DNA of 64,000 nt, from assembly GCA_963845755.1 (NCBI GenBank), contig CAWJTV010000041.1:576001-640000 (forward strand), in the 5' to 3' direction. The translations under genes were made by a program, and so were the position numbers. Every line of letters starts with the position of its first letter. Position 1 is the first letter of the stretch. Below are positions 1,607-25,101 of the stretch, one piece after another. The notes beneath the pieces are model-generated. The model worked only from the letters and a program-made list of their open reading frames with translations, searched no databases and was not told the origin of the DNA. Origin of the DNA: an uncultured Planctomycetota bacterium (GTDB lineage Bacteria; Planctomycetota; Planctomycetia; Isosphaerales; Isosphaeraceae).

Positions 1607-1765
1607 ACCGTAGATCATAGGCAGAAGGCAGTGCGTCTCAGTGCAAGCTCTTCCTGGCGCACCGTCGTATGTTATTCCTGTCCGCGATAACCGACGACCG
1701 GTTCCCCGGCGTTGTGAATGGTTTTCACTGCCTACTCCCTATTGCCTCCTGCGTGAGGACGAGCC

Positions 1766-2548
1766 ATGGCGATCACCGAAGAAGGTCTGGAGCGGATCGC
1801 GGCGGTAGGACTGAAGCCCGATCAGCTTCCCCGGCATGTCGCGATCATCATGGACGGCAACGGACGATGGGCGCAGCGGCGGGGCCTGCCGCGGATCGTG
1901 GGACACCGCCGGGGTATCCAGAGCGTGCGTGCGGTGGTTGAAGAAGGCTGCCGACTGGGACTTGACCAGTTGACGCTGTACTGCCTCTCGGTGGAGAACT
2001 GGAAGCGACCTCCTCGAGAGCTGACGTTCCTCATGCGGCTGCTCCGCCATTTCCTGATCGCCGAGCGCAACGAGTTGATGGAGCAGAACGTGCGCGTGAC
2101 GATGATCGGCCGGCGCGACGGCCTCCCGGCCGACGTGCTCAACGAATACGAGCGCACGGCCGAGCAGACCGCCTTGAATGGGGGAATGACACTGTGTCTG
2201 GCAGTCAACTATGGCGGCCGGACGGAGATCAGCGACGCTGCGCGACGGCTGGCCGAAGATGTGCAGGCGGGCCGCCTCGAACCCGACCAGATTGACGAGA
2301 ACCTGTTCGCCTCGTATCTCTGTACGGCCGGGATGAACGACCCCGACCTACTGATCCGCACCGCCGGTGAGATGCGGATCAGCAACTTCCTCCTCTGGCA
2401 GATCTCCTACGCCGAGCTCTGGATCACGCCGACGCTCTGGCCCGATTTCCGCGGCGATGACTTGCTCCAGGCCTGCAACGCCTTCGCTGCCCGCGAACGC
2501 CGGTTCGGCGGCCTCCCCGCCTTCGCCGCCGGAAACGCCGCGCGCTGA
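1766..2548 (+). CDS. uppS: undecaprenyl diphosphate synthase (isoprenyl transferase)
   Basis: HVAIIMDGNGRWA, SVENWKRP, NYGGRTEI, DPDLLIRTAGEMRISNFLLWQISYAE. Confidence 0.97.
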   Translation: MAITEEGLERIAAVGLKPDQLPRHVAIIMDGNGRWAQRRGLPRIVGHRRGIQSVRAVVEEGCRLGLDQLTLYCLSVENWKRPPRELTFLMRLLRHFLIAERNELMEQNVRVTMIGRRDGLPADVLNEYERTAEQTALNGGMTLCLAVNYGGRTEISDAARRLAEDVQAGRLEPDQIDENLFASYLCTAGMNDPDLLIRTAGEMRISNFLLWQISYAELWITPTLWPDFRGDDLLQACNAFAARERRFGGLPAFAAGNAAR

Positions 2549-12988: not shown

Positions 12989-13198
12989 TCAGTGTCTCAC
13001 GTTCTCGCCGAGGGCATTGGTCTTGCTAGCCCAGCCTGGTCCGTGAGCATAAACCACCAAACAACTGGCTTCATGATGAGCAGCCATGGCCAGAAATCGA
13101 TCACGGCGGCGCTGCAACTCGACGGCTACACCGAATACTGTCCCGATTGTTGCAACCACAGCCATCCACCACCGAGTCGTCATCCGGGGCAGTCGCAT
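12989..13198 (-). CDS. small membrane-anchored hypothetical protein (possibly truncated)
   Basis: MRLPRMTTRWWMAVVATIG N-terminus typical of small Isosphaeraceae proteins; GGAGG RBS. Confidence 0.55.
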   Translation of the reverse strand: MRLPRMTTRWWMAVVATIGTVFGVAVELQRRRDRFLAMAAHHEASCLVVYAHGPGWASKTNALGENVRH

Positions 13199-13236
13199 GA
13201 CCCGAACCTCCGGGCTGACAGACTGGCCAGTCTGAT

Positions 13237-13320
13237 CTCTAGTCCAGGATTTATACCGCAGACTTGACGTAAGTCCTTTCTCGACGTCTCAGATTCCGTT
13301 GATGGGAGGGGGATATTCAC
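13237..13320. repeat. 84-bp direct repeat, copy 1
   Basis: ctctagtccagg...ttgacgtaagtcctttctcgacgtc...ggagggggatattcac; 74/84 identical to 13940..14023 by manual alignment. Confidence 0.9.
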
Positions 13321-13470
13321 CGGAGGGGTAGGAAGGGGCATTGCTAATCCCCCAGGCAAAATACATAGGATGACGAAGGCGTTGTTTCCCATATTGCCCA
13401 TCCTGCGTTAATGTTAAGCAATCCCCTTTGGCAGGCTTTGTTACTGCTTCAGCGGAGACGGCACGACAAA

Positions 13471-13782
13471 TTAGTCGAGGAGGTGATCACGCATCTGAAC
13501 CTTCCCGCTTGGCTTCGGGATAGGACCTCTTGCACGGCTTCGCTGGGATCTGGTGCCCATGGCCACAAGATACATACCCCCCAGCCAAAAACCGAGAAAG
13601 CTGCCGGCCGCCCCGCCCAAGAACACGAATACGGCAGCAATGAACGCCAGAATAAATAGGGACCCTACGTGATCGATATCATTTGGGTTGTTACTCGGCA
13701 AGAGGAGGATCACCAGGAAACAGATAAGGCCGGCTATAGCCCCGATCACCAAGCCATAGACCGTCGGTCGAAGTAGTCGCAT
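13471..13782 (-). CDS. small two-TM hypothetical protein
   Basis: two hydrophobic helices (VYGLVIGAIAGLICFLVILLL; SLFILAFIAAVFVFLGG); lower GC. Confidence 0.5.
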   Translation of the reverse strand: MRLLRPTVYGLVIGAIAGLICFLVILLLPSNNPNDIDHVGSLFILAFIAAVFVFLGGAAGSFLGFWLGGMYLVAMGTRSQRSRARGPIPKPSGKVQMRDHLLD

Positions 13783-13939
13783 GATGATGCGGTCCTGTTT
13801 TCTCGAATGCTTCCGGACGACCCGATTTCGATGTGCATGGACTCCGAAGGGATTGACGAGGATGCGCATGGCCACGACCTCGACCGCTTCCATCGTCCGC
13901 CGTGAGGAGGTCGCATGCCCCCTTCCTGTGAAGGCTCGA

Positions 13940-14023
13940 CTCTAGTCCAGGCATTGCACCGCAGCCTTGACGTAAGTCCTTTCTCGACGTCCCTGATTTC
14001 GTCGATAGGAGGGGGATATTCAC
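13940..14023. repeat. 84-bp direct repeat, copy 2
   Basis: matches 13237..13320. Confidence 0.9.
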
Positions 14024-14256
14024 TGTTTACACATCGGACACTTGTTAGCCATTCCTCTATCGAGGTTGTCAGACGTTCACAGCACGGCCCAGGGCCTTTC
14101 TCAAGGATACCGCGGCGCAGGTTCGTTGCACCAGCGTCAAACCCTCGCGAGGTGTGAGGAATGGAGAATCCGCACTCTTCACAACACTCGGACCAGGATA
14201 GAAGACCAACTGGTCATGATGAATCGACAAGGGGAACGTCGGGGACAGGCGATGAG

Positions 14257-14327
14257 AGGCGCCGGCGGGAGTCGAACCCGCTTCCGCGGTTTTGCAGACC
14301 GCTGCCCGGCCGTCAGGCTCCGGCGCC
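14257..14327 (-). tRNA. tRNA-Cys(GCA)
   Basis: anticodon arm GCGGT-CTGCAAA-ACCGC; TTCGA T-loop; U73. Confidence 0.9.
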
Positions 14328-14357
14328 CTGAGTGCTTCGACCCTCCCTCGGAGGGCA

Positions 14358-14430
14358 TGTCCTCGCCAGGAATCGAACCTGGTCTCCGACCTTCGCAAAG
14401 TCGTGTGCGCGTCCGTCACACTCCGAGGAC
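14358..14430 (-). tRNA. tRNA-Arg(GCG)
   Basis: CGACT-TTGCGAA-GGTCG; acceptor GTCCTCG/CGAGGAC. Confidence 0.85.
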
Positions 14431-14457
14431 AACGATCGGAACAGGACCGTTGACGAG

Positions 14458-14528
14458 TCCCCCACCCGGGAATCGAACCCGGCCTTGCGGCTTCGAAGAC
14501 CGCCGTGCGTCCGCCACACCCGCAGGGA
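14458..14528 (-). tRNA. tRNA-Arg(UCG)
   Basis: GCGGT-CTTCGAA-GCCGC; GU-rich acceptor stem. Confidence 0.8.
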
Positions 14529-14538
14529 AACAGCCGAG

Positions 14539-14610
14539 TGCCCTTGCCAGGAGTCGAACCTGGTCTTCGACCTTCGGAGGGTCGCGTGCCGTCCGTCACA
14601 CGCCAAGGGC
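14539..14610 (-). tRNA. tRNA-Arg(CCG)
   Basis: CGACC-CTCCGAA-GGTCG. Confidence 0.88.
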
Positions 14611-14618
14611 GCAATCGA

Positions 14619-14690
14619 AGCCGACGGCCGGGCTCGAACCGGCATGAACCTGCTTACAAGGCAGGGGCCTCACCGTTCGGCCACGTCGGC
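14619..14690 (-). tRNA. tRNA-Thr(UGU)
   Basis: CCTGC-CTTGTAA-GCAGG. Confidence 0.9.
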
Positions 14691-14699
14691 AGATAAGAG

Positions 14700-14769
14700 C
14701 AGGGGCGCAAGGATTTGAACCCTGTCCGCGAGCTTTGGAAACTCGCTGCTCTCCCAGGAGCACACCCCT
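14700..14769 (-). tRNA. tRNA-Trp(CCA)
   Basis: CGAGT-TTCCAAA-GCTCG; A1-U72, G73. Confidence 0.88.
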
Positions 14770-14791
14770 ATCATTCGATCGATTGAGCGAG

Positions 14792-14864
14792 GGTATTCGG
14801 CGGGAGTTGAACCCGGCGCCTCGAGATTCACAGTCTCGCATGCTTCCGCTACACCACGAACACC
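14792..14864 (-). tRNA. tRNA-His(GUG)
   Basis: CGAGA-CTGTGAA-TCTCG; G-1:C73 pair present. Confidence 0.9.
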
Positions 14865-14901
14865 ATCAGCAAGTCCGGCCCGAGGTTCACCCGGGCCGAG
14901 G

Positions 14902-14985
14902 CGGAAGGGGCGGGAGTCGAACCCGCAAGGCTCATCGCTCGTCCGCTTTCCAAGCGGGTCCCGTCGCCGGTCGGGTGGCCCTTCC
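14902..14985 (-). tRNA. tRNA-Ser(GGA)
   Basis: CCCGC-TTGGAAA-GCGGA; long variable arm; G73. Confidence 0.88.
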
Positions 14986-15002
14986 GTATCAATCAGTTTC
15001 AG

Positions 15003-15076
15003 TGGGCGATGCAGGGGTCGAACCTGCGGCCTCCAGCGTGTCATGCTGGCGCTCTGGCCGGCTGAGCTAACCGCCC
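15003..15076 (-). tRNA. tRNA-Val(GAC)
   Basis: CCAGC-ATGACAC-GCTGG; canonical cloverleaf. Confidence 0.93.
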
Positions 15077-15087
15077 GGATGATCCAT

Positions 15088-15160
15088 TACCCCGACCAGG
15101 ACTCGAACCCGAAACTCCTCGTTAGGACCGAGGCGTGATCCTCCCTTTCACCATCGGGGC
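15088..15160 (-). tRNA. tRNA-Arg(CCU)
   Basis: CCTCG-GTCCTAA-CGAGG. Confidence 0.88.
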
Positions 15161-15170
15161 CAGGAACAAG

Positions 15171-15256
15171 CGGAAGGCAAGGGATTCGAACCCTCATCCC
15201 CTCTCGAGGAACCGTTTTAGCAGGACGGCTCGGCAAACCGTATCCGACTACCTTCC
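15171..15256 (-). tRNA. tRNA-Ser(GCU)
   Basis: CCGTC-CTGCTAA-AACGG; long variable arm. Confidence 0.88.
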
Positions 15257-15263
15257 GTTCGAG

Positions 15264-15334
15264 TGGACCCACCGGGAGTCGAACCCGGGTCTCCGGCCTG
15301 CCGAGCCGGTGTCGTTCCGCTGGACGATGGGCCC
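15264..15334 (-). tRNA. tRNA-Ala(GGC)
   Basis: CCGGC-TCGGCAG-GCCGG (C33); G3:U70. Confidence 0.88.
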
Positions 15335-15364
15335 TTCAAACTTCCCAACCTGCGTTCAACCGAG

Positions 15365-15435
15365 TGGACCGCCGGGGAGTCGAACCCCGATTCCCGGCGT
15401 GCGATACCGGTGTCGTCCCGTTGGACCAGCAGCCC
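15365..15435 (-). tRNA. tRNA-Ala(CGC)
   Basis: CCGGT-ATCGCAC-GCCGG; G3:U70. Confidence 0.88.
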
Positions 15436-15445
15436 GTTTGCGAGA

Positions 15446-15516
15446 AGGTCCGCCCGAGAATCGAACTCGGTCCCCCTCCTTACCATGGAGGTGTGCTGCC
15501 GGAACACCTGCAGACC
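15446..15516 (-). tRNA. tRNA-Thr(GGU)
   Basis: CCTCC-ATGGTAA-GGAGG; atypical D-arm. Confidence 0.82.
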
Positions 15517-15529
15517 GGACGGCGGAGAG

Positions 15530-15602
15530 TCGTCCCGGCAGGACTCGAACCTGCGCTAACCTGTGTGTAAGACAGGCGTCTTGGCCGCTAGACGACGGGA
15601 CG
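15530..15602 (-). tRNA. tRNA-Val(UAC)
   Basis: CCTGT-CTTACAC-ACAGG. Confidence 0.9.
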
Positions 15603-15614
15603 AATTGCGGTCAG

Positions 15615-15688
15615 TAGCACGGGTGGGATTCGAACCCACAGACACCAGGCCCTCGACCTGGTCGCGATGCCAGTTAGCGTACCGTGCC
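15615..15688 (-). tRNA. tRNA-Leu(GAG), short variable loop
   Basis: CCAGG-TCGAGGG-CCTGG (C33); A73. Confidence 0.82.
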
Positions 15689-15702
15689 AGGAACACCGAC
15701 AG

Positions 15703-15771
15703 TTGCGGGTCGGGGAGTCGAACCTCCGTCTCCGAGCGTATGAAACTCGGCCGAGCACCGGCCCACCCGCA
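15703..15771 (-). tRNA. tRNA with CAU anticodon (Met or Ile2), truncated D-arm
   Basis: CGAGT-TTCATAC-GCTCG; perfect acceptor TGCGGGT/ACCCGCA; D region only GGGCCGGTGCTCGGC. Confidence 0.75.
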
Positions 15772-15772
15772 G

Positions 15773-15842
15773 TCCCAGGCCCCGGTATCGAGCCGGGCGG
15801 ATCGGCCTCATGAAAGCCAACCGGGCACCTGCCTCGCCTGGG
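15773..15842 (-). tRNA. second tRNA-like gene with CAU anticodon, truncated D-arm
   Basis: TGGCT-TTCATGA-GGCCG; acceptor CCCAGGC/GCCTGGG; T-loop CTCGATA. Confidence 0.7.
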
Positions 15843-15875
15843 AAACTCGCAGTATCAGTCCAACCGATCAATCAG

Positions 15876-15958
15876 TCGCCAGGGGGAGATTCGAACTCCC
15901 ACGCCTCGAGGGCACGTGCTTCTGAGGCCCGCGCGTCTACCAGTTCCGCCACCCGGCG
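15876..15958 (-). tRNA. tRNA-Leu(CAG), long variable arm
   Basis: CGGGC-CTCAGAA-GCACG; TGGCGGAACTGGTAGACGC D-arm. Confidence 0.92.
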
Positions 15959-15973
15959 CGTCGTCCAGTACAG

Positions 15974-16046
15974 TAGTCCGTGCGGGAATCGAACCCGCCT
16001 CTTCAGCTTGAGGGGCTGATATCCTGAGCCGATAGACGAACGGACC
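15974..16046 (-). tRNA. tRNA-Glu(CUC)
   Basis: TCAGC-CCCTCAA-GCTGA (C33). Confidence 0.88.
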
Positions 16047-16064
16047 TTGAATAAGAACCTCCAG

Positions 16065-16150
16065 TGGGTAGTGAAGGAGTTGAACCTTCCGCCTTCCGCC
16101 TCACAACTTGAGGGCAACGGTTTTACAGACCGCCGTGAGGAACACCACCC
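16065..16150 (-). tRNA. tRNA-Tyr(GUA)-like, D-arm absent, enlarged variable region
   Basis: GCGGT-CTGTAAA-ACCGT; acceptor GGGTGGT/ACTACCC-A; only 10 nt between acceptor and anticodon stems. Confidence 0.75.
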
Positions 16151-16169
16151 GAGAAAAACCATCCGCGAG

Positions 16170-16244
16170 TAGCACGGGTGGGAGTCGAACCCACAGAATC
16201 CCCGGGTTTGAGCCGGGTCGCTTTGCCGGTTTGCGTACCGTGCC
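16170..16244 (-). tRNA. tRNA-Leu(CAA), short variable loop
   Basis: CCCGG-CTCAAAC-CCGGG. Confidence 0.85.
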
Positions 16245-16260
16245 ATCTCTCCTACTCCAG

Positions 16261-16335
16261 CGCCCCCGGCGGGATTCGAACCCGCGACCTCCACTGTGAC
16301 AGAGTGGCGAGCTCTCCAGGCTGCTCCACGAAGGC
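16261..16335 (-). tRNA. tRNA-Asp(GUC)
   Basis: CCACT-CTGTCAC-AGTGG; G73. Confidence 0.92.
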
Positions 16336-16344
16336 GTGATCGAA

Positions 16345-16418
16345 TGGCTCAGGAGGGAGTCGAACCCTCAGCATCCCTCGTTCTAAGCGAGAGTGGTCTG
16401 CCGATTGCCTACCGAGCC
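16345..16418 (-). tRNA. tRNA-Leu(UAG), short variable loop
   Basis: TCTCG-CTTAGAA-CGAGG. Confidence 0.85.
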
Positions 16419-16443
16419 GAGAACTCTTGCACCGAGAACCCAT

Positions 16444-16516
16444 TACCCAGGGTGGGAGTCGAACCCACAGGCGCCCGGGTTTAAGCCGGGCCGCTCAGCC
16501 GTTGGCGTACCTGGGT
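16444..16516 (-). tRNA. tRNA-Leu(UAA), short variable loop
   Basis: CCCGG-CTTAAAC-CCGGG. Confidence 0.85.
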
Positions 16517-16529
16517 CCTCTCTCCGAGG

Positions 16530-16614
16530 CGGAAGCCGTGGGACTCGAACCCACAAGCGGCCTGCGCCGCCACCTGCTTTCAAGACAGGCCCCTGATCCA
16601 GCCGGTTGGCTTCC
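16530..16614 (-). tRNA. tRNA-Ser(UGA)
   Basis: CCTGT-CTTGAAA-GCAGG; long variable arm; G73. Confidence 0.85.
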
Positions 16615-16634
16615 GTGAGGGCATTCCACGCGAG

Positions 16635-16709
16635 TTCCGGGGGCTGGAATCGAACCAGCGGCCTCCGCGTTCAGAGCGCGGCGTCACTACCACCAGCAAC
16701 TGCCCCGGA
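16635..16709 (-). tRNA. tRNA-Gln(CUG)
   Basis: CCGCG-CTCTGAA-CGCGG; U1-A72. Confidence 0.87.
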
Positions 16710-16782
16710 TTCGGGAAGGAGGAATTCGAACCCCCACCGCCTGATTCAAAGTCAGGGAGCCTACCACTTAGCCGATTCCCGA
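16710..16782 (-). tRNA. tRNA-Gln(UUG)
   Basis: CCTGA-CTTTGAA-TCAGG; abuts tRNA-Gln(CUG) with no spacer. Confidence 0.9.
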
Positions 16783-16783
16783 G

Positions 16784-16853
16784 AGCGCCCCGCGGGAGTC
16801 GAACCCGCCTTTCGGACCTGGGAAGCCCGCCCTGACCGCTCGGCCAGGGACGC
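16784..16853 (-). tRNA. tRNA-Gly(CCC)
   Basis: CGGGC-TTCCCAG-GTCCG; U73. Confidence 0.83.
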
Positions 16854-16871
16854 ATCAACCGTCGCTTCGAG

Positions 16872-16942
16872 TGCGGGATCGGGGAGTCGAACCCCGATCG
16901 CCTGGTTGGAAGCCAGGAATCTTGCCATTGGACCAATCCCGC
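16872..16942 (-). tRNA. tRNA-Gly(UCC)
   Basis: CCTGG-CTTCCAA-CCAGG; A73. Confidence 0.9.
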
Positions 16943-16952
16943 GGCCTGCCAG

Positions 16953-17036
16953 CGGAAGGAGAGGGAGTCGAACCCTCAAGGCTCATCGCTCGTCCGGATT
17001 CGAGCCGGGTGCCGTCGCCAATCGGCTTGCCCTTCC
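16953..17036 (-). tRNA. tRNA-Ser(CGA)
   Basis: CCCGG-CTCGAAT-CCGGA; variable arm identical to tRNA-Ser(GGA). Confidence 0.88.
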
Positions 17037-17046
17037 CCAGGAACAG

Positions 17047-17121
17047 CTCCGGCGGCAGGAATCGAACCTGCGTCCCCCCGGTTAACAGCCGGGCGCTCGT
17101 ACCAGCACGAACTCCACCGGA
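17047..17121 (-). tRNA. tRNA-Asn(GUU)
   Basis: CCCGG-CTGTTAA-CCGGG; U1-A72, G73. Confidence 0.9.
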
Positions 17122-17138
17122 ATCATCGCGTCAGACAG

Positions 17139-17213
17139 TCGGGATGGCCGGATTTGAACCGGCGATTTCCTGCTCCCAAGGCAGGCGGATTAGCCAGGCT
17201 TTCCTACATCCCG
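17139..17213 (-). tRNA. tRNA-Pro(UGG)
   Basis: CCTGC-CTTGGGA-GCAGG; C1-G72. Confidence 0.92.
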
Positions 17214-17233
17214 AGTCGCCTCGTTTTCCGACA

Positions 17234-17304
17234 AGTGCCCAGCGGGAGTCGAACCCGCACGTCCGCCTTGGCAAAGCGGTAGGCTTCCGCTACATCATGG
17301 GCAC
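17234..17304 (-). tRNA. tRNA-Gly(GCC)
   Basis: CCGCT-TTGCCAA-GGCGG; U73. Confidence 0.87.
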
Positions 17305-17336
17305 GATCGCCGTCCCCGAATTGTCAAGGAACCGAG

Positions 17337-17408
17337 AGCACCGGGTGGGACTCGAACCCACGTCGCCGCCTTACGAGAGCGGAGTCTTCGCCGCTGGACG
17401 ACCAGTGC
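17337..17408 (-). tRNA. tRNA-Thr(CGU)
   Basis: CCGCT-CTCGTAA-GGCGG. Confidence 0.88.
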
Positions 17409-17419
17409 CTGCATCACGA

Positions 17420-17492
17420 TGGGACCGGAGGGGCTCGAACCCTCACCGAACCGGTTAAGAGCCGGACGTTCTGCCGCTAGAACTTCAGTCCC
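17420..17492 (-). tRNA. tRNA-Lys(CUU)
   Basis: TCCGG-CTCTTAA-CCGGT. Confidence 0.88.
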
Positions 17493-17506
17493 GACTGGTA
17501 GATGAG

Positions 17507-17579
17507 TAGCCCGTGTGGGAATCGAACCCACCTCTCCGCCTTGAAAGGGCGGTATCCTGCGCCGATAGACGAACGAGCC
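17507..17579 (-). tRNA. tRNA-Glu(UUC)
   Basis: CCGCC-CTTTCAA-GGCGG. Confidence 0.92.
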
Positions 17580-17590
17580 ATCTTCACGAG

Positions 17591-17662
17591 TGGGCCGGGG
17601 GGCGCTCGAATCCCCGTCTGCCGGGCTTCAACCGGCCGCTAGACCGTCTCAGCTACCGACCC
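17591..17662 (-). tRNA. tRNA-Phe(GAA), first gene of the array
   Basis: GCCGG-TTGAAGC-CCGGC; weak T-arm. Confidence 0.82.
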
Positions 17663-17675
17663 ATTCCGCGATCCC

Positions 17676-17711
17676 AACAAAAAGGCCCGGTGTCTTCGTC
17701 ACACCGGGCCT
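17676..17711 (-). terminator. intrinsic terminator (attenuator) just upstream of the first tRNA
   Basis: minus strand AGGCCCGGTGT-GACGAAG-ACACCGGGCCT followed by TTTTGTT; perfect 11-bp stem. Confidence 0.88.
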
Positions 17712-17749
17712 GAGACTCCACGCGAGGGATGTCCGAGACCGGGTGTCAC
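17698..17749 (-). promoter_or_regulatory. antiterminator hairpin overlapping the leader stop codon and the terminator 5' arm
   Basis: GUGACACCCGGUCUCGGAC (17749-17731) pairs with GUCUCAGGCCCGGUGUGAC (17716-17698); 16 of 19 positions pair, including 2 G-U. Confidence 0.75.
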
Positions 17750-17847
17750 GTCTGCAAGGGATAGAACCGGAGCGGGTTCGCCGACAGGTCGGCGGATCGC
17801 TTCGTTTCTTGACAACCCAGGGTGTAACGCGGACTCCCGGCGAACAT
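17746..17847 (-). CDS. 33-aa leader peptide of the tRNA-array attenuator (MFAGSPRYTLGCQETKRSADLSANPLRFYPLQT)
   Basis: GAGGT SD 5 nt before ATG; TGA lies inside the antiterminator 5' arm; below the ORF-track length cutoff. Confidence 0.7.
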   Translation of the reverse strand: MFAGSPRYTLGCQETKRSADLSANPLRFYPLQT

Positions 17848-17929
17848 GGACAACCTCGATGTTACGGGTGTCTCAGGCCGACTGGACTCGGGGCCAACCT
17901 CACGGCTCGCCCGTCGTCTTGTACCCTTA

Positions 17930-17958
17930 CAGACGCATCACCCCGGGAGGATGTTCGC
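17930..17958 (-). promoter_or_regulatory. candidate ECF-sigma promoter for leader + tRNA array
   Basis: GCGAAC-N17-CGTCTG on the minus strand, ~85 nt upstream of the leader ATG; resembles the GAAC/CGTC ECF consensus. Confidence 0.4.
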
Positions 17959-18259
17959 GCGATTTCGAAGAGATTATTGGTGGAGCCATTTCCGATCCCG
18001 ATTCGCTGCATTACGGCCCGCCATCGAGCGTTCGCCGGGACCATGAACGATACGATCTCTTCGAGGCCGAGCACCAGGGGCGTATCCGTTCTCTCGCCGC
18101 AAGTCCAAATCGCTCAAGCCCTCGGGAGATGTCGAGATGGGCGAGGGGCCTCGAAAATCATTGGACCTGACGTGTTCCGTGCCGGTACGTCGCATAGAGG
18201 GGAGATGGGTGACTGAGCGGGACAGGCAAGCCGTCTGCCACACTTTACAGGAGAAGCTC

Positions 18260-19324
18260 ATGCAGACCATGACCACGGAACTCGAGCGGTTGATCGGCAA
18301 GGTCATTGGGGACCTGGGCGGCACGGCCAACGCGGCCCTCGTTATCGTCGGCGACCGGCTCGGGTTATATCGGACCCTCGCCGAGATCGGCCCCACTACC
18401 TCGCACGAACTGGCCCAGCAGACTGGCACGCACGAGCGATATATCCGCGAGTGGCTTGCCGCCCAGGCGGCTTCCGACTATGTCGACTACGACCCGGCCA
18501 CCAAGCGGTTCAGCATGTCCCGCGAGCAAGCCATGCTCTTTGCCGATGAGAACAGTCCGGTGTACATGGCCGGAGGCTTCTTCGCCGCGGCGGCGGCCAT
18601 CAACGACGAACGACACCTGGCGGAGGCGTTCCGGTCGGGACGTGGGATCGCATGGAGCGATCACCACGACTGCCTGTTCTGCGGCACGGAGAAGTTCTTC
18701 CGCCCGTCCTATGCCGGAAACCTCCTCCAGTCGTGGATCCCGTCGCTGGGGGACATGCACGCGAGGCTCCAGGCCGGGGGAACCGTGGCCGATCTCGGCT
18801 GTGGGCACGGTTGCTCCACCGTCCTCATGGCGAAGGCCTATCCGGCCTCCACGTTCGTCGGCTTCGATAGCCACATGCCGTCGATCGAGCGCGCCCGCGA
18901 GACGGCGGCCGCGCAGGAACTCCCCAACGCACGCTTCGAGGTCGCGACGGCGCAAAACTTCACACGGATTGATGGAGACGGCTACGACCTGGTCGCGATC
19001 TTCGACGCCCTGCATGACATGGGCGACCCGCACGGCGCGGCCCGTCGAGTGCGAGAGATGTTGAAAGCCGATGGAACCTGGATGATCGTCGAACCGGCCG
19101 CGGGCGATCGGCTGGAGGAGAACCTCAACCCGGTGGGCCGCGTGTTCTATGCCCTCTCCACGGCCGTCTGCGTCCCCTCGGCCTTGAGCCAGAAAGGGGG
19201 CGAATCGCTTGGGGCTCAGGCCGGACCTGCCGTGTTGGAGAACGTGGTCACCAGCAGCGGCTTCTCCAGATTCCGGATCGCCACAAAGTCCCCGTTCAAT
19301 CTGGTGATCGAGGCCAAGCGATAA
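18260..19324 (+). CDS. class I SAM-dependent methyltransferase with N-terminal wHTH (Rv2258c-like)
   Basis: GDRLGLYRTL, ERYIREWL, VADLGCGHG, FDALHDMGDP, LGAQAGP; AGGAG RBS. Confidence 0.9.
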   Translation: MQTMTTELERLIGKVIGDLGGTANAALVIVGDRLGLYRTLAEIGPTTSHELAQQTGTHERYIREWLAAQAASDYVDYDPATKRFSMSREQAMLFADENSPVYMAGGFFAAAAAINDERHLAEAFRSGRGIAWSDHHDCLFCGTEKFFRPSYAGNLLQSWIPSLGDMHARLQAGGTVADLGCGHGCSTVLMAKAYPASTFVGFDSHMPSIERARETAAAQELPNARFEVATAQNFTRIDGDGYDLVAIFDALHDMGDPHGAARRVREMLKADGTWMIVEPAAGDRLEENLNPVGRVFYALSTAVCVPSALSQKGGESLGAQAGPAVLENVVTSSGFSRFRIATKSPFNLVIEAKR

Positions 19325-19340
19325 CCCCAGATTTGTCGAT

Positions 19341-20204
19341 CTACTCCAGCCCCGGGATCTTCGCCGGGCCGCCGGACTTGCCGTCGCCCTCGGTGTTTTT
19401 CTTCTCCCGGATCCGTTTCGCGAGGAATCTGGCCGACTCGTCGCCGATCACGTGGTAACCAGCCGGGTTGGGATGGCGATCGCCGAACCAGCCGGGCAGC
19501 TCGCGGAAATGGGCGTCGAGCCGGTTGTCCATCACCACGACCCGGCCGTCCCTGACGAACGGCTTGACCCAATCGCGGTCCTTCTCCGGGATCTTCTCCA
19601 GCGGGTAGCGGCGGTAGTTGAGCATGTGCGATCCGTGCTTCAGCTCAGCCCGGTAGCGGGTATACACGTCGAACAAGACCAGGCGCTCCGACTCGGCCAC
19701 CTTCCGGATGAGACGGTTCACCGTCTCGTCGCGCTCCGGAGTCATGTAGGGGATGATCGTCATTGGGACGATGGTCGCGCACGGGAAGTGCCGGCGCAGG
19801 CGCCCGATCAGGTCGGAGTAGTCCTTCGGGAAGTTGACCTCGAACCCCTCGCGCCTGACGATGTCATTCAGGCCGTAGCGGATGAGGACGTAATCGATGC
19901 CTTCGAGAGTGGCGATGTCCTTGTCGAACCGACCGGAGGCGAGCAGGCCCTGGATGAACTCGCCGTCTCGCCCCTGATTGATGACCTCGGCCGGCGGCAG
20001 GTCCTTCTCCGCCGCGAGCAGCAGCCGGATCACGTCTTCGAGGTGGGGACCATCGGGATCGACCTGGCGGCAGACGCTGCCGATGGTTGTGCTGTCGCCC
20101 AGAAGGAGGATCCTGAGTTTTCCCGCCTCCTCACCCGAGGCCGCAGCCGGTACGGTCATGAGCCCGACGATGCACCACGACCGCAAAGAGTTCATCAGAC
20201 GCAT
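19341..20204 (-). CDS. secreted SGNH/GDSL hydrolase
   Basis: signal peptide; LLGDSTT, INQGRDG, YGLND, DRHPNPAGY blocks. Confidence 0.88.
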   Translation of the reverse strand: MRLMNSLRSWCIVGLMTVPAAASGEEAGKLRILLLGDSTTIGSVCRQVDPDGPHLEDVIRLLLAAEKDLPPAEVINQGRDGEFIQGLLASGRFDKDIATLEGIDYVLIRYGLNDIVRREGFEVNFPKDYSDLIGRLRRHFPCATIVPMTIIPYMTPERDETVNRLIRKVAESERLVLFDVYTRYRAELKHGSHMLNYRRYPLEKIPEKDRDWVKPFVRDGRVVVMDNRLDAHFRELPGWFGDRHPNPAGYHVIGDESARFLAKRIREKKNTEGDGKSGGPAKIPGLE

Positions 20205-20451
20205 CGGACCGGTTCTCCTGGGATGTGGGCTGCCGCTTGTTCCGGGCCGATCTCGGTTCCGCTCGCCCGCGAATCGCTCATCGGGGAGTGTCCCACCGCC
20301 ACACCTACCAGGTCGCGGGCTGGGGACAGGTCCATTCAGAATAATCGCCCAGTATGCCAGGGAGTAGACCACGCCGGATTCACCGGGCCATGCGTTAACA
20401 ACGGGACCGGCGTCAAGAGCGCGGCGTGAGGCGGTCGCGCCGGGGAACGGG

Positions 20452-21525
20452 CTATTTCCCCGAGAGTGAGGCGAGTCTCGAGAGCGTCTCCTCTCCGAGC
20501 CGCCTCGTGAGCTCGCCCGCCGGTAACTCGCGGCAGAGGTGCGCCGCCTGCCCCGACCAGAGCGGCGAGAAGTCCCCCGAGCCTTCCGCCTCGGACTTCG
20601 ACCGAAGGGGCGCCACTGCACCCGCCGCGAGCGGGAACCTCGGTGCGATCTCGGACAGGGGACCGACTTCGCGAACAAGACGGTTCATGATCCCCCGCGC
20701 GGGGCGGCCCGTGAAGACGTTTGTGATTGTCGTCTCGCCGGCACCTTTCAGCGCCGTCCGGTGGACCTCGCTCGTCGTCGCCTCCGGGCAGAGGAGATAG
20801 GCCGTGCCGATCTGGACGGCCGAGGCCCCGAGCGCGAGGGCCGCGACGACGCCTCGCGCGTCGGCGATGCCGCCCGCGGCGATAACCGGCACGCGCACAG
20901 CGTCGGCCACCTGTGGGACGAGCGCCATCGTCCCGACCTGGGTCGAGACGTCCTCCGACAGGAACATCCCCCGATGCCCCCCCGCCTCGGCGCCCTGAGC
21001 GATGATCGCGTCGCAGCCCCTGGCCTCGAGCCAGCGTGCCTCCTCGACCGAGGTCGCAGACGAGATGACCTTCGCGCCCGATGACTTGACCCGGGCCAGG
21101 AGCTCCCCATCCGGGAGACCGAAATGAAAACTCACGACCTCGGCCTTGAGCTCGCAGACGACCTCGCACATCGCCTTGTCGAACGGTAGGCGGCTCGTCA
21201 CCGCGGTCGGGGCCGTCGGGTCGAGCCCGAGCTCGACGTAGTATCGCTCGAGGCGATTCTTCCACACGGAGACGCGGTCGGGATCTGGGCCGGGAGGCGT
21301 GTGACAGAAGAAATTCAGGTTGATAGGTTTCGAGGATTGCCGACGAATAGACTTCACCTCGCTTCGAACCTGATCCGACCCGAGCAGTGCGCAGGGAAGT
21401 GATCCCAGTCCCCCGGCCTCAGAGACGGCGATCGCAAGCCCGGAGCCATTCGACCCCGCCATGGGGGCCTGGATGATCGGAAGTTCAATCCCGAAGAGGT
21501 CGAGGATCCGACGGTCCGGCCACAT
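20452..21525 (-). CDS. nitronate monooxygenase family flavoprotein
   Basis: PIIQAPMAG, VSFHFGLP, AQGAEAGGHRGMF, PVIAAGGIAD, LWSGQA. Confidence 0.93.
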   Translation of the reverse strand: MWPDRRILDLFGIELPIIQAPMAGSNGSGLAIAVSEAGGLGSLPCALLGSDQVRSEVKSIRRQSSKPINLNFFCHTPPGPDPDRVSVWKNRLERYYVELGLDPTAPTAVTSRLPFDKAMCEVVCELKAEVVSFHFGLPDGELLARVKSSGAKVISSATSVEEARWLEARGCDAIIAQGAEAGGHRGMFLSEDVSTQVGTMALVPQVADAVRVPVIAAGGIADARGVVAALALGASAVQIGTAYLLCPEATTSEVHRTALKGAGETTITNVFTGRPARGIMNRLVREVGPLSEIAPRFPLAAGAVAPLRSKSEAEGSGDFSPLWSGQAAHLCRELPAGELTRRLGEETLSRLASLSGK

Positions 21526-22693
21526 ATCGATTCTCCTCACCAACCGGCGCAACGACCGCAGACTTCGCGCCCATGCGCCTCAGATAGTCCACGATCCTTT
21601 TTTTATCGTTCTTGATCGCCATGTCGAGAGCCGTCTCTCCGTTGTTGTTCACCGCGATCGGGCTTGCGCCGCGTTCCAGCAGCAATTCGACGACCTTGAG
21701 CGTAGAGTTTCTCTCGCAGGCTTTATGCAAAGGCGTGTTGCTTCCATGATCCGTTACGTTGATCATGGCGCCATGATCGACCAACCACCTTGTACCGACG
21801 ATATCGCCCTGGTGTGCGAATGCGTGCAATAACGTGCGACTACCGAGTTTTTCGTCGATATCGACGCCCGATTCCAGACATAGGGCCGCAACCTCGTAAT
21901 TCCCTCGACCGTGACGCTGGCCATGCCCCAAGGCCGCGAACACCGTTCCAATGCCTGGCTGCCATCCATGCGCCATGAGAAGTTGAGCGATCTTCACGTT
22001 TCCTCCGCGCGACGCACACAGATCGAGAGGACTCACGTCACGATCCACGCGCATCGGCCCCTGGTCCAGTAACCGTTCAGCACAAAGGACGAGTTGCTTC
22101 GCATAGGCTGGATCCGATTTTCCCAGCTCGGACCTGCAGGCGTAGTCCAGCGCGGTCATGCCCTTCTCGCCCAGCAAATCATAATCTGTCGTTCTACCGG
22201 CCAGCGCCGGGTCCGCGAGAAGCCAGTCGCGAACACGATCCATGTCGCCGATCGCAGCGGCTGTGTACAGGTTTTGTTCTGCCCCCGCGTCGATCAATAT
22301 ATGCATGATGTCAATGTGAGGCCCTACTGTCGCGGCACACACGAGATGGTAATCCGGCCTCGCGCCAATCTGGATCAAGAACCTGACCAGCTCCAGGTGG
22401 CTTGGCTTCTTGGGCGCCGACTTGAAATCCATGACGGCCAGGGCGAGTAGCCTGTCCCGATTGGCGGCGGTGATCAGGCTCCGATTCTGCTTGAGGGCAG
22501 CATAGTCCCCCTTTTTTGCGAGCGTCCCGAGGTGAGCAGGTTTTCGATCACCTCTCCCGCTCGCGTGAAGTTCACGCCTCCGCCTGTTAACACAAGCGGA
22601 ACACTTTTTCGCCAGCCCATCCGGCTCCTTGCGACTTCCGGAAAAGGAGGAAGAATCCAAGACGCGCTTGCACTCCTGGCATTGCTTCTTCAT
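21485..22693 (-). CDS. ankyrin-repeat protein with N-terminal CxxC...CxxC zinc-binding motif
   Basis: CQEC...CSAC; TALDYA, TLLHAFA, TPLHKAC, GETALDMA repeats. Confidence 0.82.
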   Translation of the reverse strand: MKKQCQECKRVLDSSSFSGSRKEPDGLAKKCSACVNRRRRELHASGRGDRKPAHLGTLAKKGDYAALKQNRSLITAANRDRLLALAVMDFKSAPKKPSHLELVRFLIQIGARPDYHLVCAATVGPHIDIMHILIDAGAEQNLYTAAAIGDMDRVRDWLLADPALAGRTTDYDLLGEKGMTALDYACRSELGKSDPAYAKQLVLCAERLLDQGPMRVDRDVSPLDLCASRGGNVKIAQLLMAHGWQPGIGTVFAALGHGQRHGRGNYEVAALCLESGVDIDEKLGSRTLLHAFAHQGDIVGTRWLVDHGAMINVTDHGSNTPLHKACERNSTLKVVELLLERGASPIAVNNNGETALDMAIKNDKKRIVDYLRRMGAKSAVVAPVGEENRYVAGPSDPRPLRD

Positions 22694-22934
22694 GGTCTGA
22701 ACCCGAGGAAGGGGCTCAATCTCTCGAGAGAGCTGAACGCTTGAGTCGAGCATACCCCAGGGCGGATAGGAATCCACCCCCCCTGCCCCTCTTCGTAAGA
22801 GCGTTCGGGAAGAATGAGCGTGCAGGCCAATAGACCGACCCTCCAAGCTGGGATTCCACACAGGGTTCGCGCCGGAGACAATCGCGTGAAAGGTTCTCGC
22901 TCTGGCTGTGTGTATCCTTGTGGAAGGAGGACTG

Positions 22935-23579
22935 ATGGACGACGAGCCGCCCGCACCGGCCACGCGACACACGTTGATCGTCAAGTTACGCGATCCGGCC
23001 GATGCCGGCGCCTGGCGCGAGTTCGTGGCGCTGTATGAGCCGTTGGTCTACCGGCTGGCGCGGCGCAAGGGGCTCCAGGACGCCGATGCGCGGGACCTCT
23101 GCCAGGAGGTGTTTCGCGCGGTGTCTCAGGCCATTGATCGCTGGGACATCGACCCGACGCGCGGGAGCTTCCGCGGCTGGCTCTCCCGCATCGCACGCAA
23201 CCTCCTGGTGAACTTCCTGACCCGACGGCCCTATCGGGTCCGCGGCAGCGGATCCACCAGCGTCCAGGAATTACTCGAGGCTCAACCGGCCGGCGATCCG
23301 TCGGCCACGGCCCTGTTCGAGGCCGAGTACCGCCGCCGGTTGTTCCGTTGGGCTGCTGATGAGGTGAAGAGCGAGTTCGCCGCGACGACCTGGGACGCGT
23401 TCTGGCAGACGGCCGTCGAAGGCCGCACGCCGGCAGACGTGGCGGCCGAGCTGAGTCTGTCCGTCGGCGCGGTTTACATTGCTCGGAGCCGGGTGCTGGC
23501 CCGCTTGCGGAAGCGGATCGGAGAACTGGGTGAAGAGGCATCGGCGATCATTCGCGAGGTCGATCATGGTAGCTCGTAG
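22935..23579 (+). CDS. ECF sigma factor, kinase-associated planctomycete type
   Basis: AWREFVALYEPLVYRLARRKGLQDADARDLCQEVF, GSFRGWL, RGSGS loop, VGAVYIARSRVL; AGGAGG RBS. Confidence 0.9.
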   Translation: MDDEPPAPATRHTLIVKLRDPADAGAWREFVALYEPLVYRLARRKGLQDADARDLCQEVFRAVSQAIDRWDIDPTRGSFRGWLSRIARNLLVNFLTRRPYRVRGSGSTSVQELLEAQPAGDPSATALFEAEYRRRLFRWAADEVKSEFAATTWDAFWQTAVEGRTPADVAAELSLSVGAVYIARSRVLARLRKRIGELGEEASAIIREVDHGSS

Positions 23580-25101
23580 GACATCGTGTGATCCCCAACG
23601 GCTCCGGTTGCTGGCCGAGGACCGCTTGCCGGCCAATGAGCTGGAGCGACTCGAAGGCCATTTGCAACAGTGCGCGGGATGCCGCGAAGAGCTGGACAGC
23701 CTGGCCGGCGGCGAGCCCTGGCGCGAGGCCGTCCGTCATTACCTCGGCGACGCCGCGACGGATCTCTACGAGGCAAGCCCGCTCGCGGATATCGACGAGC
23801 CGCTCGGCTTCCTGGCACCCTCGGACTGGCCCGACTCGCTTGGTCGGCTCGGGACCTACGAGGTCAAGGGCGTGATCGGCCGCGGGGGGATGGGCGTGGT
23901 GCTCAAGGCGTTCGACCCGGCCCTGAGCCGGAACGTCGCGATCAAGGTGCTGTCGGCGTCGCTCGCCACCTGTGGGGCGGCGCGGCGGCGGTTCCTCCGC
24001 GAGGCCAAGGCCGCGGCGGCGGTTGCTCATGAGCATGTCGTCTCGGTCTTTGCCGTCGAAGAGAAGGCGGGGTTGCCGTTCCTGGTCATGGAATACATCG
24101 CCGGACATTCGCTCCAGGACCGGCTCGATTCGCAGGGATCGCTGGCCCTGCCCGAGATCCTGCGCATCGGCATGCAGACGGCCGCCGGCCTGGCGGCGGC
24201 CCATGCCCAGGGGCTGGTCCACCGCGACGTCAAGCCGGCCAACATCCTGATGGAGAACGGTATCGAGCGGGTCAAGCTGACCGACTTCGGCCTCGCCCGG
24301 GCAGCCGCCGACGCCAGCATGACCCAGAGCGGGCTGATCTCCGGTACGCCCCACTATATGGCACCCGAGCAGGCGCGCGGCGAGTTGACCGACCATCGCG
24401 CCGACCTCTTCAGCCTGGGGAGCACGCTTTACGCGATGTGCGCCGGCCATCCGCCGTTCCGCGCCGAGTCGCCGCTGGCCGTGCTGCGCAGGGTTTCCGA
24501 CGACGAACCAAGGCCACTCCGCCAGATCAATCCTGAGATCCCGCAATGGCTCGAGGCGGTCATCGAGCGGCTCCATTCCAAGGACCCGGCCCGGCGCTTT
24601 TCCTCCGCGTCCGAATTGGCCGGATTGCTGGGCCACTGCCTGGCTCACGTCCAGGCGCCGCTTGCGGTCTCGTTGCCCGCCGAGCTGGTCCCGTCCATCA
24701 GGGAGATGCGCCCGAAACGACGTTGGTCCGCAGCGGCCCTGCTGGGATTCGCCGCCATCGTGGGCGGAGCCCTCTTCCTCTGGCCGGTTCGTCCACCGAG
24801 ACCTCGTGCGTCGATCCCAGCCAGCCAGGAGATCCCGTACGTCGCACGAACGTCCAGCCTTTCGAAGATCGCCCCGGATGAGATCGATCAATCGGCCCGG
24901 GAGGCCTGGGATCAGGCCGGGGCGATCGAGGCCGAACTTCATCGGCGAGCCGATGCGGGCGGTCCCGATCCGATCTCTGAACTCGCCCGGCACCTGGCCA
25001 ATCGAGCCGGCTCTCTTGAGCGAGAGCTCGGCTCCGGCCGCGTCGCGGCCCCAGGTGCCTCGACCGATTCCCCGTTTCCCAACCCCGATGACAGGAGATG
25101 A
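23566..25101 (+). CDS. Hanks-type Ser/Thr kinase with N-terminal ZAS zinc finger and one TM
   Basis: HLQQCAGC; GRGGMGVV, VAIK, HRDVKPANIL, DFGLA, GTPHYMAPEQ. Confidence 0.93.
   Translation: MVARRTSCDPQRLRLLAEDRLPANELERLEGHLQQCAGCREELDSLAGGEPWREAVRHYLGDAATDLYEASPLADIDEPLGFLAPSDWPDSLGRLGTYEVKGVIGRGGMGVVLKAFDPALSRNVAIKVLSASLATCGAARRRFLREAKAAAAVAHEHVVSVFAVEEKAGLPFLVMEYIAGHSLQDRLDSQGSLALPEILRIGMQTAAGLAAAHAQGLVHRDVKPANILMENGIERVKLTDFGLARAAADASMTQSGLISGTPHYMAPEQARGELTDHRADLFSLGSTLYAMCAGHPPFRAESPLAVLRRVSDDEPRPLRQINPEIPQWLEAVIERLHSKDPARRFSSASELAGLLGHCLAHVQAPLAVSLPAELVPSIREMRPKRRWSAAALLGFAAIVGGALFLWPVRPPRPRASIPASQEIPYVARTSSLSKIAPDEIDQSAREAWDQAGAIEAELHRRADAGGPDPISELARHLANRAGSLERELGSGRVAAPGASTDSPFPNPDDRR

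Follow-up and report, generated by a model that had tools for sequence, protein, structure and literature searches.

A conserved leader resembling a ribosome-dependent transcription attenuator precedes redundant tRNA arrays of Planctomycetia

Results

Organization of the tRNA array and its leader

We analysed a 64,000-nucleotide stretch of planctomycete DNA, referred to below as the window (positions 576001-640000 of contig C41 of its source genome, G000), which is part of a 14.3-Mb genome with 64% G+C. The minus strand of the window carries a long array of tRNA genes, and the element studied here is the leader region that precedes this array (Table 1). A preliminary description, made from the sequence alone, had recognized in this region an extracytoplasmic function (ECF)-like promoter, a Shine-Dalgarno (SD) sequence with an ATG, a 33-codon open reading frame (ORF) and a terminator, and had interpreted the ensemble as a ribosome-controlled attenuator. 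Inspection of the sequence together with a terminator scan located every one of these parts on the minus strand. The 19-nt strand that contains the stop codon of the upstream ORF (uORF) pairs, as had been described, with the 5′ arm of the terminator; 16 of its 19 positions are matched, two of them by G-U and 14 by Watson-Crick pairs, and the uORF employs 28 distinct codons and 16 amino acids in its 33 positions, with no run of a single amino acid. From the position of the promoter, transcription is predicted to start near 17925. The first gene of the array is a tRNA-Phe gene that starts at 17662, leaving a gap of 13 nt between the T tract and the gene. A scan of positions 13000-22000 against Rfam, ranked by E-value, returned tRNA-type matches and others at chance level, and no cis-regulatory, leader or riboswitch family.

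Table 1. Positions of the leader parts, the tRNA array and neighbouring genes in the window
Feature	Position	Strand	Remarks
ECF-type promoter	17931-17960	-	-35 GCGCGAAC at 17960-17953, 17-nt spacer, -10 CGTCT at 17935-17931
5′ untranslated region (UTR) segment GGCCTGAGAC	17870-17879	-	complementary to GTCTCAGGCC (17716-17707), which overlaps the terminator 5′ arm
SD-like GAGG	17854-17857	-	6 nt 5′ of the ATG
Leader uORF	17746-17847	-	ATG at 17847, 33 sense codons, TGA at 17748-17746; product MFAGSPRYTLGCQETKRSADLSANPLRFYPLQT
Hairpin H1 within the uORF (about codons 18-24)	17775-17798	-	inverted repeat CGCCGA - loop - TCGGCG
Stop codon and antiterminator strand GTGACACCCGGTCTCGGAC	17731-17749	-	partner at 17716-17698
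Intrinsic-terminator hairpin (predicted)	17683-17711	-	11 pairs (8 G-C), 7-nt loop; from the terminator scan
T tract TTTTGTT	17676-17682	-	directly after the hairpin
tRNA array	14256-17662	-	36 head-to-tail genes (ARAGORN) and one tRNA-Tyr-like candidate
Gene for a winged-helix and SAM methyltransferase protein	18137-19324	opposite to the array	next gene upstream
ECF-type sigma factor gene (Sigma70_r2/r4)	22908-23579	+	5 kb from the ECF-type promoter of the array

The array is a second and divergent tRNA set

The array had been described as holding 38 genes. ARAGORN recognized 36 of them, and a 37th candidate, resembling tRNA-Tyr(GTA) with a long arm, lies at approximately 16065-16151, where an anticodon-loop-like CTGTAAA is visible; it scored 29.7 bits against the Rfam tRNA-Sec model, below the gathering score of 47. 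The 38th gene was not confirmed. A 103-nt gap in the array (15772-15874, minus strand) folds strongly (-44.6 kcal/mol) and has a CAT placed as if in a loop. No tRNA is called there by ARAGORN or Rfam; a tRNA that is degenerate or of unusual form could be present.

The rest of the genome encodes 66 further tRNAs that cover the same anticodons, so the array constitutes a second tRNA set. A counterpart with the same anticodon exists elsewhere in the genome for 33 of the 36 array tRNAs, and the members of these pairs are only 47-77% identical; at this distance the spare tRNAs could evade an attack that recognizes the housekeeping ones by sequence. The genome contains three copies of the leader, each heading a different block of tRNA genes. 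The two extra copies are located on contig C20, where one heads Pro-ggg, Lys-ttt, Ile-tat and Ile-gat, and the other heads Ala-tgc, Arg-tct, Val, His and Trp. These blocks supply Lys-ttt, Ile-tat, Ile-gat, Ala-tgc and Arg-tct, which are missing from the main array. Several anticodons, namely Leu-caa, Arg-gcg, Lys-ttt and Ile-tat, are confined to the main array and the C20 sub-arrays.

The leader accompanies tRNA arrays across the class

We collected first relatives of the leader by a BLAST search with the intergenic region against 61 related genomes. Most of the homologous arrays found in this way begin with tRNA-Phe and tRNA-Glu and carry the same upstream block. The alignment of regions upstream of planctomycete tRNA arrays, which the preliminary description had proposed as a check, did reveal a conserved uORF with its stop in the antiterminator. 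For searches by covariance we used a model of the stop-to-terminator part, called R1, which includes the last 11 uORF codons. R1 matched in 69 of 121 genomes of the family (38 of 53 genera) and in 48 of 151 genomes sampled across the class, from at least nine families. Among the 80 family matches that were extracted, 70 have tRNA genes on the same strand within 300 nt behind them and 10 do not; the thresholds used for R1 admit some ordinary terminators.

Behind the R1 matches we found full arrays starting with Phe and Glu as well as sub-arrays that begin with Pro-ggg/Lys-ttt/Ile-tat, Asp/Leu-caa, Gln-ctg/Ser-tga, Lys-ctt/Thr-cgt or Arg-tct. The 3′ end of the match, a few bases beyond the T tract, is in most cases 0-60 nt away from the first tRNA, which leaves no room for a second promoter. 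No conserved upstream neighbour gene emerged among 15 ORFs from 12 array loci. The genes upstream of the arrays vary by genus, which argues that promoter, leader and tRNAs form an autonomous module. We inspected four loci from other families; each has a uORF of 29-38 codons, with ...YPLR[LMT] or ...HSLRW at its end, followed by an array starting with Phe or Glu. The whole arrangement recurs before tRNA arrays in many genera and is therefore more than a chance association; judged from these comparisons, the unit of promoter, leader and tRNAs is autonomous, old and specific to tRNA arrays.

Two observations were made during these searches. Some weak R1 matches without tRNAs (L087, L088, L090 and L091, in genomes of the family) resemble ordinary terminators; L088 and L090 stand directly after reading frames. 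They share a GGCCCGG...CCGGGCC stem with an interrupted T tract, which seems to be the usual terminator form of the family. One of these frames is presumably DUF1559-like, judging from its C-terminal pattern. DUF1559 proteins are typical of planctomycetes, and the window has a DUF1559 gene near the array. Separately, an array in genome G008 (locus L012, approximately 1350-2350, minus strand) has two direct repeats of about 50 nt and a small ORF between tRNA-Leu-cag and tRNA-Asp, and a second complete promoter with a 32-codon leader occupies the same intra-array site. Insertions of this kind would split arrays into separately gated units.

The uORF is conserved as a coding frame

We found the uORF in 59 leaders, and its length is exactly 33 codons in 41 of these. 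It starts with ATG in 54 and with GTG in five, with SD sequences of the GAGG or GGGAC type upstream, and it ends at one aligned place at which the identity of the stop codon varies (TGA in 56, TAG in two, TAA in one). We also predicted starts in a manner blind to the reading frame, by the SD score alone at 45-135 nt 5′ of the stop. The start predicted in this way was in frame with the stop in 60 of 67 leaders and, among the 25 leaders in which the start-stop distance is not 99 nt, in 18 compared with about eight expected, a significance that is somewhat overstated since related genomes are not independent. Arg17, Arg21 and Arg32 are conserved while the third position of their codons varies; in its 5′ half, the uORF shows little sequence conservation. 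By its SD, its length, its stop and its frame-blind starts, the uORF is conserved as a coding frame.

The diversity of its codons, which the preliminary description had emphasized, does not distinguish the uORF. The copy in the window has 28 distinct codons, compared with a mean of 21.5 in 33-codon windows of the genes in the window. However, the other two frames of the leaders hold 23.7 and 24.7 distinct codons against 25.2 in the uORF frame, and the G+C content at third codon positions (GC3) in the leader is 0.65. The diversity reflects a lack of codon bias rather than design. Runs of regulatory codons for a single amino acid are absent, and the amino acid composition matches that of the other two frames. 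We also considered an arginine-rich sensor and rejected it, as the arginine content of the uORF (16.4%) equals the share in the other frames.

Terminator, antiterminator and other helices

The hairpin between the leader ORF and the tRNA genes is a predicted intrinsic terminator. It is conserved in all 40 aligned leaders, with nine core pairs kept in 35-40 of them, and three columns of the T tract are at least 90% conserved across the leaders. Terminators at gene ends in the family have the same form, with a GGCCCGG...CCGGGCC core. The distance from the stop codon to the terminator arm is 34-46 nt.

The competing pairing is that of the strand at the stop codon with the 5′ arm of the terminator. 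In the copy from the window, this duplex has a predicted energy of -24.1 kcal/mol; dinucleotide shuffles averaged -14.5, and not one of 100 matched it. Across the 59 leaders the mean was -20.0 kcal/mol compared with -13.6 for shuffles, and at most five of 100 shuffles were as good in 41 leaders. Its core consists of ten bases, counted from the A of UGA, that pair with the terminator 5′ arm; all of these positions but one are paired in 31 or more of the 40 aligned leaders, and 84.7% of all cells of the alignment pair, compared with 24-46% when the partner strand is slid. One position is AU in 16 leaders, GU in 16 and GC in five. Together these features predict an antiterminator whose formation would exclude the terminator.

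The hairpin within the uORF, H1, shows changes on both sides at all six of its pairs, and its score was reached by none of 500 shuffles; RNAalifold keeps part of it. In the 40 leaders, RNAalifold revealed no conserved helix beyond H1 and the terminator, and no aptamer-like or T-box-like fold. Two further pairings were tried as general features and rejected. A duplex between the 5′ UTR and the terminator arm was significant in 15% of the 59 leaders; in genome G015 its counterpart is GGCCCGAGAC with GTCTCGGGCC, where a T:A pair has become C:G by changes on both sides. A duplex between the uORF start and the stop region was significant in 14%. Minimum-free-energy (MFE) folds of the G000 leader do pair the stop region with the uORF start (codons 3-8), and this duplex, at -25.1 kcal/mol with eight of 100 shuffles as good, stands weakly above shuffles. 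Both pairings may matter in the lineage of G000, G015, G065 and G070.

We also computed partition-function folds in which the footprint of a ribosome was masked at successive positions on the leader. With the ribosome at upstream positions, the probability of pairing between the terminator arm and the stop region was 0.4-0.6. It dropped to 0.01-0.15 only when the A site was at codons 31-34.

An ECF-type promoter is part of the conserved unit

Promoters of ECF sigma factors have a GGAAC-like -35 element and a -10 element containing CGT, spaced by about 16-17 nt. The leader promoter matches this type by sequence. It is also conserved: the motif [GC]GAAC-N15-18-CGT[CTA] is present in 55 of the 59 leaders, 44-104 nt 5′ of the uORF start, and its usual form is GCGCGAACATC ... 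GCGTCT. A promoter scan of positions 13500-21500 found no sigma-70-like site.

A loose version of the motif occurs at 70 sites in G000 compared with 18 in the reversed genome. Among these, the full form GCGCGAACAT...GCGTCT is restricted to the three leaders and one orphan site, C20:720436, with a near-match at C26:150654; neither of the latter two has a recognizable gene downstream. We rejected the idea of a wider regulon based on the loose motif. The orphan promoter (approximately 720436, minus strand, contig C20, locus L097) has no leader or tRNAs behind it and adjoins an IS66-family transposase gene and a serine-recombinase-like gene. It looks like the remnant of an array head that was severed by a mobile element.

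Surrounding genes and RNA libraries

The divergent intergenic region in front of the array extends over 17663-18136. A minus-strand ORF at 17974-18429 has no family match. The ECF sigma factor gene is followed on the plus strand by a gene for a Ser/Thr kinase with an N-terminal zf-HC2 (anti-sigma-like) motif, the two together occupying 22908-25101, and by its proximity this pair is a candidate regulator of the array promoter. ARAGORN also reports a 92-nt 'tRNA-Phe(gaa)' at 20543-20634 (minus strand), which falls within the overlap of two long ORFs, one GDSL lipase-like (19341-20678) and one for a nitronate monooxygenase (20452-21552); this is probably a false call.

No public sequencing run contained the whole stretch, the shares being at most 0.15. 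Contigs from soil RNA libraries (four runs from four studies), 85-99% alike to the window, cover the leader and the tRNAs, and some of them bridge the terminator into tRNA-Phe, for example one over 17611-17734 with three differences. The lack of contig coverage beyond approximately 18000 proves nothing, because relatives differ there.

Discussion

A proposed attenuation mechanism

From the parts of the leader, their geometry and conservation, the signs of a real coding frame in the uORF and the linkage to tRNA arrays, all described above, we infer the polarity of a switch and the signals that would induce it. In our interpretation, to which we assign a probability of roughly 0.65, the element is a ribosome-dependent transcription attenuator that heads a self-contained module of promoter, leader and tRNA array. 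Transcription would begin at the ECF-type promoter, and about 80 nt further on the 33-codon uORF would be translated. The strand directly after the UGA is complementary to the 5′ arm of a putative terminator whose end lies 13 nt upstream of the first tRNA. A ribosome that arrives on time, and thus occupies the last codons or the UGA while the terminator is being made, would cover this strand, so that the terminator forms and the array stays off. If the ribosome were late or stalled, the strand would pair with the terminator arm first and the polymerase would read into the tRNAs. Stalling might be caused by shortage or cleavage of any tRNA, by starvation or by antibiotics that target the ribosome. 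H1 could act as a pause site for RNA polymerase, synchronizing polymerase and ribosome. The supply of these tRNAs would in this way probably be tied to the performance of the ribosome. The attenuator interpretation of the preliminary description is thereby supported by the conserved uORF, by the overlap of stop and antiterminator and by the promoter in relatives. Its further suggestion, that failed initiation would also release the array, is doubtful for G000, in which MFE folds pair the stop region with the uORF start, so that an untranslated leader could terminate in the manner of trp; only 14% of leaders have this pairing at a significant level.

Several observations weigh against this interpretation. 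With respect to the uORF, the other two frames of the leaders contain just 15 and 26 stops over 1757 codons; open frames arise easily in such G+C-rich DNA, and the openness of the frame is therefore no evidence for coding. The entropies at codon positions 1, 2 and 3 (1.36, 1.46 and 1.48 bits) show weak periodicity. Some copies are broken: in G103 and G090 the frame is out of register, G015_L069 has lost the stop, and G085_L057 has CTG for ATG. The conservation of the C-terminus in distant matches is partly a matter of ascertainment, since R1 includes the last 11 codons. As for the RNA structures, a central C.C mismatch conserved in 37 of 40 leaders weakens the antiterminator, in which covariation is also scarce since neither strand varies much, and in many relatives the T tract is interrupted (TTGTCGTTTG). 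The RNA contigs give a weak hint of leader expression, as their ends, strand and level are not readable and DNA carry-over is possible. Finally, when the whole terminator is included in equilibrium folding, its median pair probability is 0.98 in all 13 ribosome states. In the folds with a masked footprint, the terminator arm has some predicted partner in 0.74-0.83 of the ensemble whatever the state, and in about 0.75-0.8 with the ribosome at the stop. Ribosome-mask folding at equilibrium thus does not discriminate between states, and we make no claim of a thermodynamic switch. As the terminator is the more stable of the folds, a switch would have to be kinetic, as in classical attenuators, and decided during transcription.

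Alternative explanations

We considered whether the event that is sensed might be termination at the stop codon itself. The C-terminus [YHF]-[PA]-[LQ]-R-x together with UGA-C would slow release by RF2 or make it conditional, and the output would be set by the dwell time of the ribosome on the antiterminator strand rather than by its arrival; such dwelling could depend on how active RF2 is, on the nascent chain or on a small molecule within the exit tunnel. Arrest at stop codons of the TnaC and SpeFL type is established and provides a precedent, and the ribosomal exit tunnel is filled by about 33 residues, which corresponds to the fixed length of the uORF. The prevalence of TGA (56 of 59 leaders) and of TGAC (51 of 59), the retention of Arg32 in 34 of 38 leaders with the codons CGC, CGA and CGG, the enrichment of Tyr29, Pro30 and Pro27, and the recurrence of ...YPLR[LMT] before the stop in other families all fit this idea. 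However, the C that follows TGA also belongs to the antiterminator strand, as its second base, and the last codons lie inside R1, so both conservations can be explained otherwise. Moreover, three of 59 leaders end in TAG or TAA, the G000 leader itself ends in LQT and lacks Arg32, and no similarity to any testable known arrest motif was seen. We regard sensing by dwell at the stop as unlikely.

The decision between terminator and antiterminator could instead be made by a trans-acting factor, such as an RNA-binding protein, a small RNA or an uncharged tRNA, acting for example at H1, with the uORF as an auxiliary. H1 is the best-covarying helix of the leader and is without an assigned role, and since the terminator always wins at equilibrium, something must hold the antiterminator. 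A cyanobacterial array is reported to be under the control of the protein TrcR (PMC10272220). Such a factor would leave unexplained the presence of an SD and an ATG and the length changes that preserve the frame. In addition, the 5′ half of the uORF has a poorly conserved sequence, the leader matches no Rfam cis-regulatory family, RNAalifold finds no conserved helices besides H1 and the terminator, and the 15 ORFs from 12 loci include no conserved neighbour gene for a dedicated factor. We rate this slightly below the preceding alternative. Least probable, in our estimation, is that there is no switch at all, and that the uORF encodes a small protein or is translated inconsequentially, the hairpin is a leaky terminator or a stability or processing element at the 5′ end of the pre-tRNA, and the ECF-type promoter alone sets the level. 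The promoter is indeed the most conserved part (55 of 59) and could by itself confer induction by stress, many copies have imperfect T tracts, and RNA contigs bridge the terminator. This account offers no reason for the complementarity to the terminator arm that the strand beside the stop has kept, or for the fixed length of the uORF and the fixed distance from stop to arm, and the weak overall conservation of the peptide argues against a functional small protein.

Relation to known attenuators and tRNA arrays

In the trp, his, leu, thr and pheA leaders of Escherichia coli, as described by the Yanofsky model, a ribosome at the leader stop codon favours termination. The planctomycete leader resembles this type in its short translated frame, its intrinsic terminator, its mutually exclusive antiterminator with the stop codon at the edge of the antiterminator strand, and a hairpin within the leader (here H1) that could act as a pause site. 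It differs in that it has no run of codons for one amino acid, a 1:2 anti-antiterminator is not general (14% of leaders), its targets are tRNAs and not biosynthetic enzymes, and its promoter is of the ECF type.

Closer parallels in the nature of the signal are found in attenuators that respond to stalled ribosomes. In mycobacteria and other Actinobacteria, stalling on the uORF of whiB7 (wblC) is believed to cause antitermination, the inducers include amino-acid starvation, depletion of tRNAs and synthetases, and antibiotics, and the uORF sequence varies between species (PMC10274678). The planctomycete leader shares with whiB7 a uORF attenuator of variable sequence and the proposed sensing of general translation stress. 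The target of whiB7 regulation is, however, a transcription factor and its uORF is Ala-rich, whereas here the target is a tRNA array and no amino acid is enriched beyond composition; the two belong to different phyla and have no sequence homology. Antibiotic-responsive, ribosome-mediated attenuators also control the resistance genes vmlR of Bacillus subtilis (PMC9226507) and lmrC of Streptomyces (PMC8546547). These likewise use a uORF with a terminator and an antiterminator for sensing stalled ribosomes, and vmlR additionally uses pausing of RNA polymerase. Unlike the planctomycete leader, they activate ABCF resistance proteins in Firmicutes and Actinobacteria, and none is reported to control tRNA genes.

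The regulated object itself has a counterpart in the trn operon (L-array) of Anabaena, whose long and redundant set of tRNA genes is by default silent and responds with induction to translation stress and inhibitors; Planctomycetes are among the phyla with such long arrays (PMC8421152). The behaviour proposed for the planctomycete switch would match, by analogy, this induction by translation inhibitors. The Anabaena L-array is controlled by the TrcR repressor through direct repeats that cover the -10 box and start site of a sigma-70 promoter (PMC8421152, PMC10272220), in contrast to the ECF-type promoter and predicted leader attenuator described here, and PMC8421152 contains none of the words 'terminator', 'attenuat-' or 'leader'. 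Our literature searches, whose coverage excludes most subscription journals, found no published attenuator of tRNA arrays. Most likely, the mechanism is of a known kind, that of trp, whiB7 and vmlR, and the redundant tRNA set is its new target.

Implications for planctomycete tRNA supply

Long redundant tRNA arrays are present in many bacterial phyla and in phages. To our knowledge, how such arrays are activated is understood in one cyanobacterium only, where it proceeds through a protein repressor. A conserved cis-acting leader would be a second and mechanistically different answer. The element is short, sharply defined and present in many genera of the class, cultured strains included, which makes the idea directly testable, and the R1 covariance model together with the ECF-type promoter motif provides a search handle for arrays and their transcription units in metagenomes.

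A more comprehensive proposal, which joins these observations and which we put forward tentatively as possible rather than probable, is that Planctomycetia hold a complete and divergent backup set of tRNAs behind a pan-codon sensor of 'transit time'. Any slowing on the 33-codon test frame, whether from tRNA cleavage by an anticodon nuclease, from starvation or from antibiotics, would free the spare tRNAs, an ECF sigma factor would serve as a second and independent gate, and the system would be old enough to be shared by most families of the class. If the attenuator interpretation is true, the supply of tRNA would be coupled directly to the performance of the ribosome, and the silence of such arrays in normal growth and their appearance under translation stress would have an explanation in a single step. 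Under the more comprehensive proposal, the leader would be the first attenuator whose output is the adaptor RNAs of translation themselves, closing a direct feedback loop.

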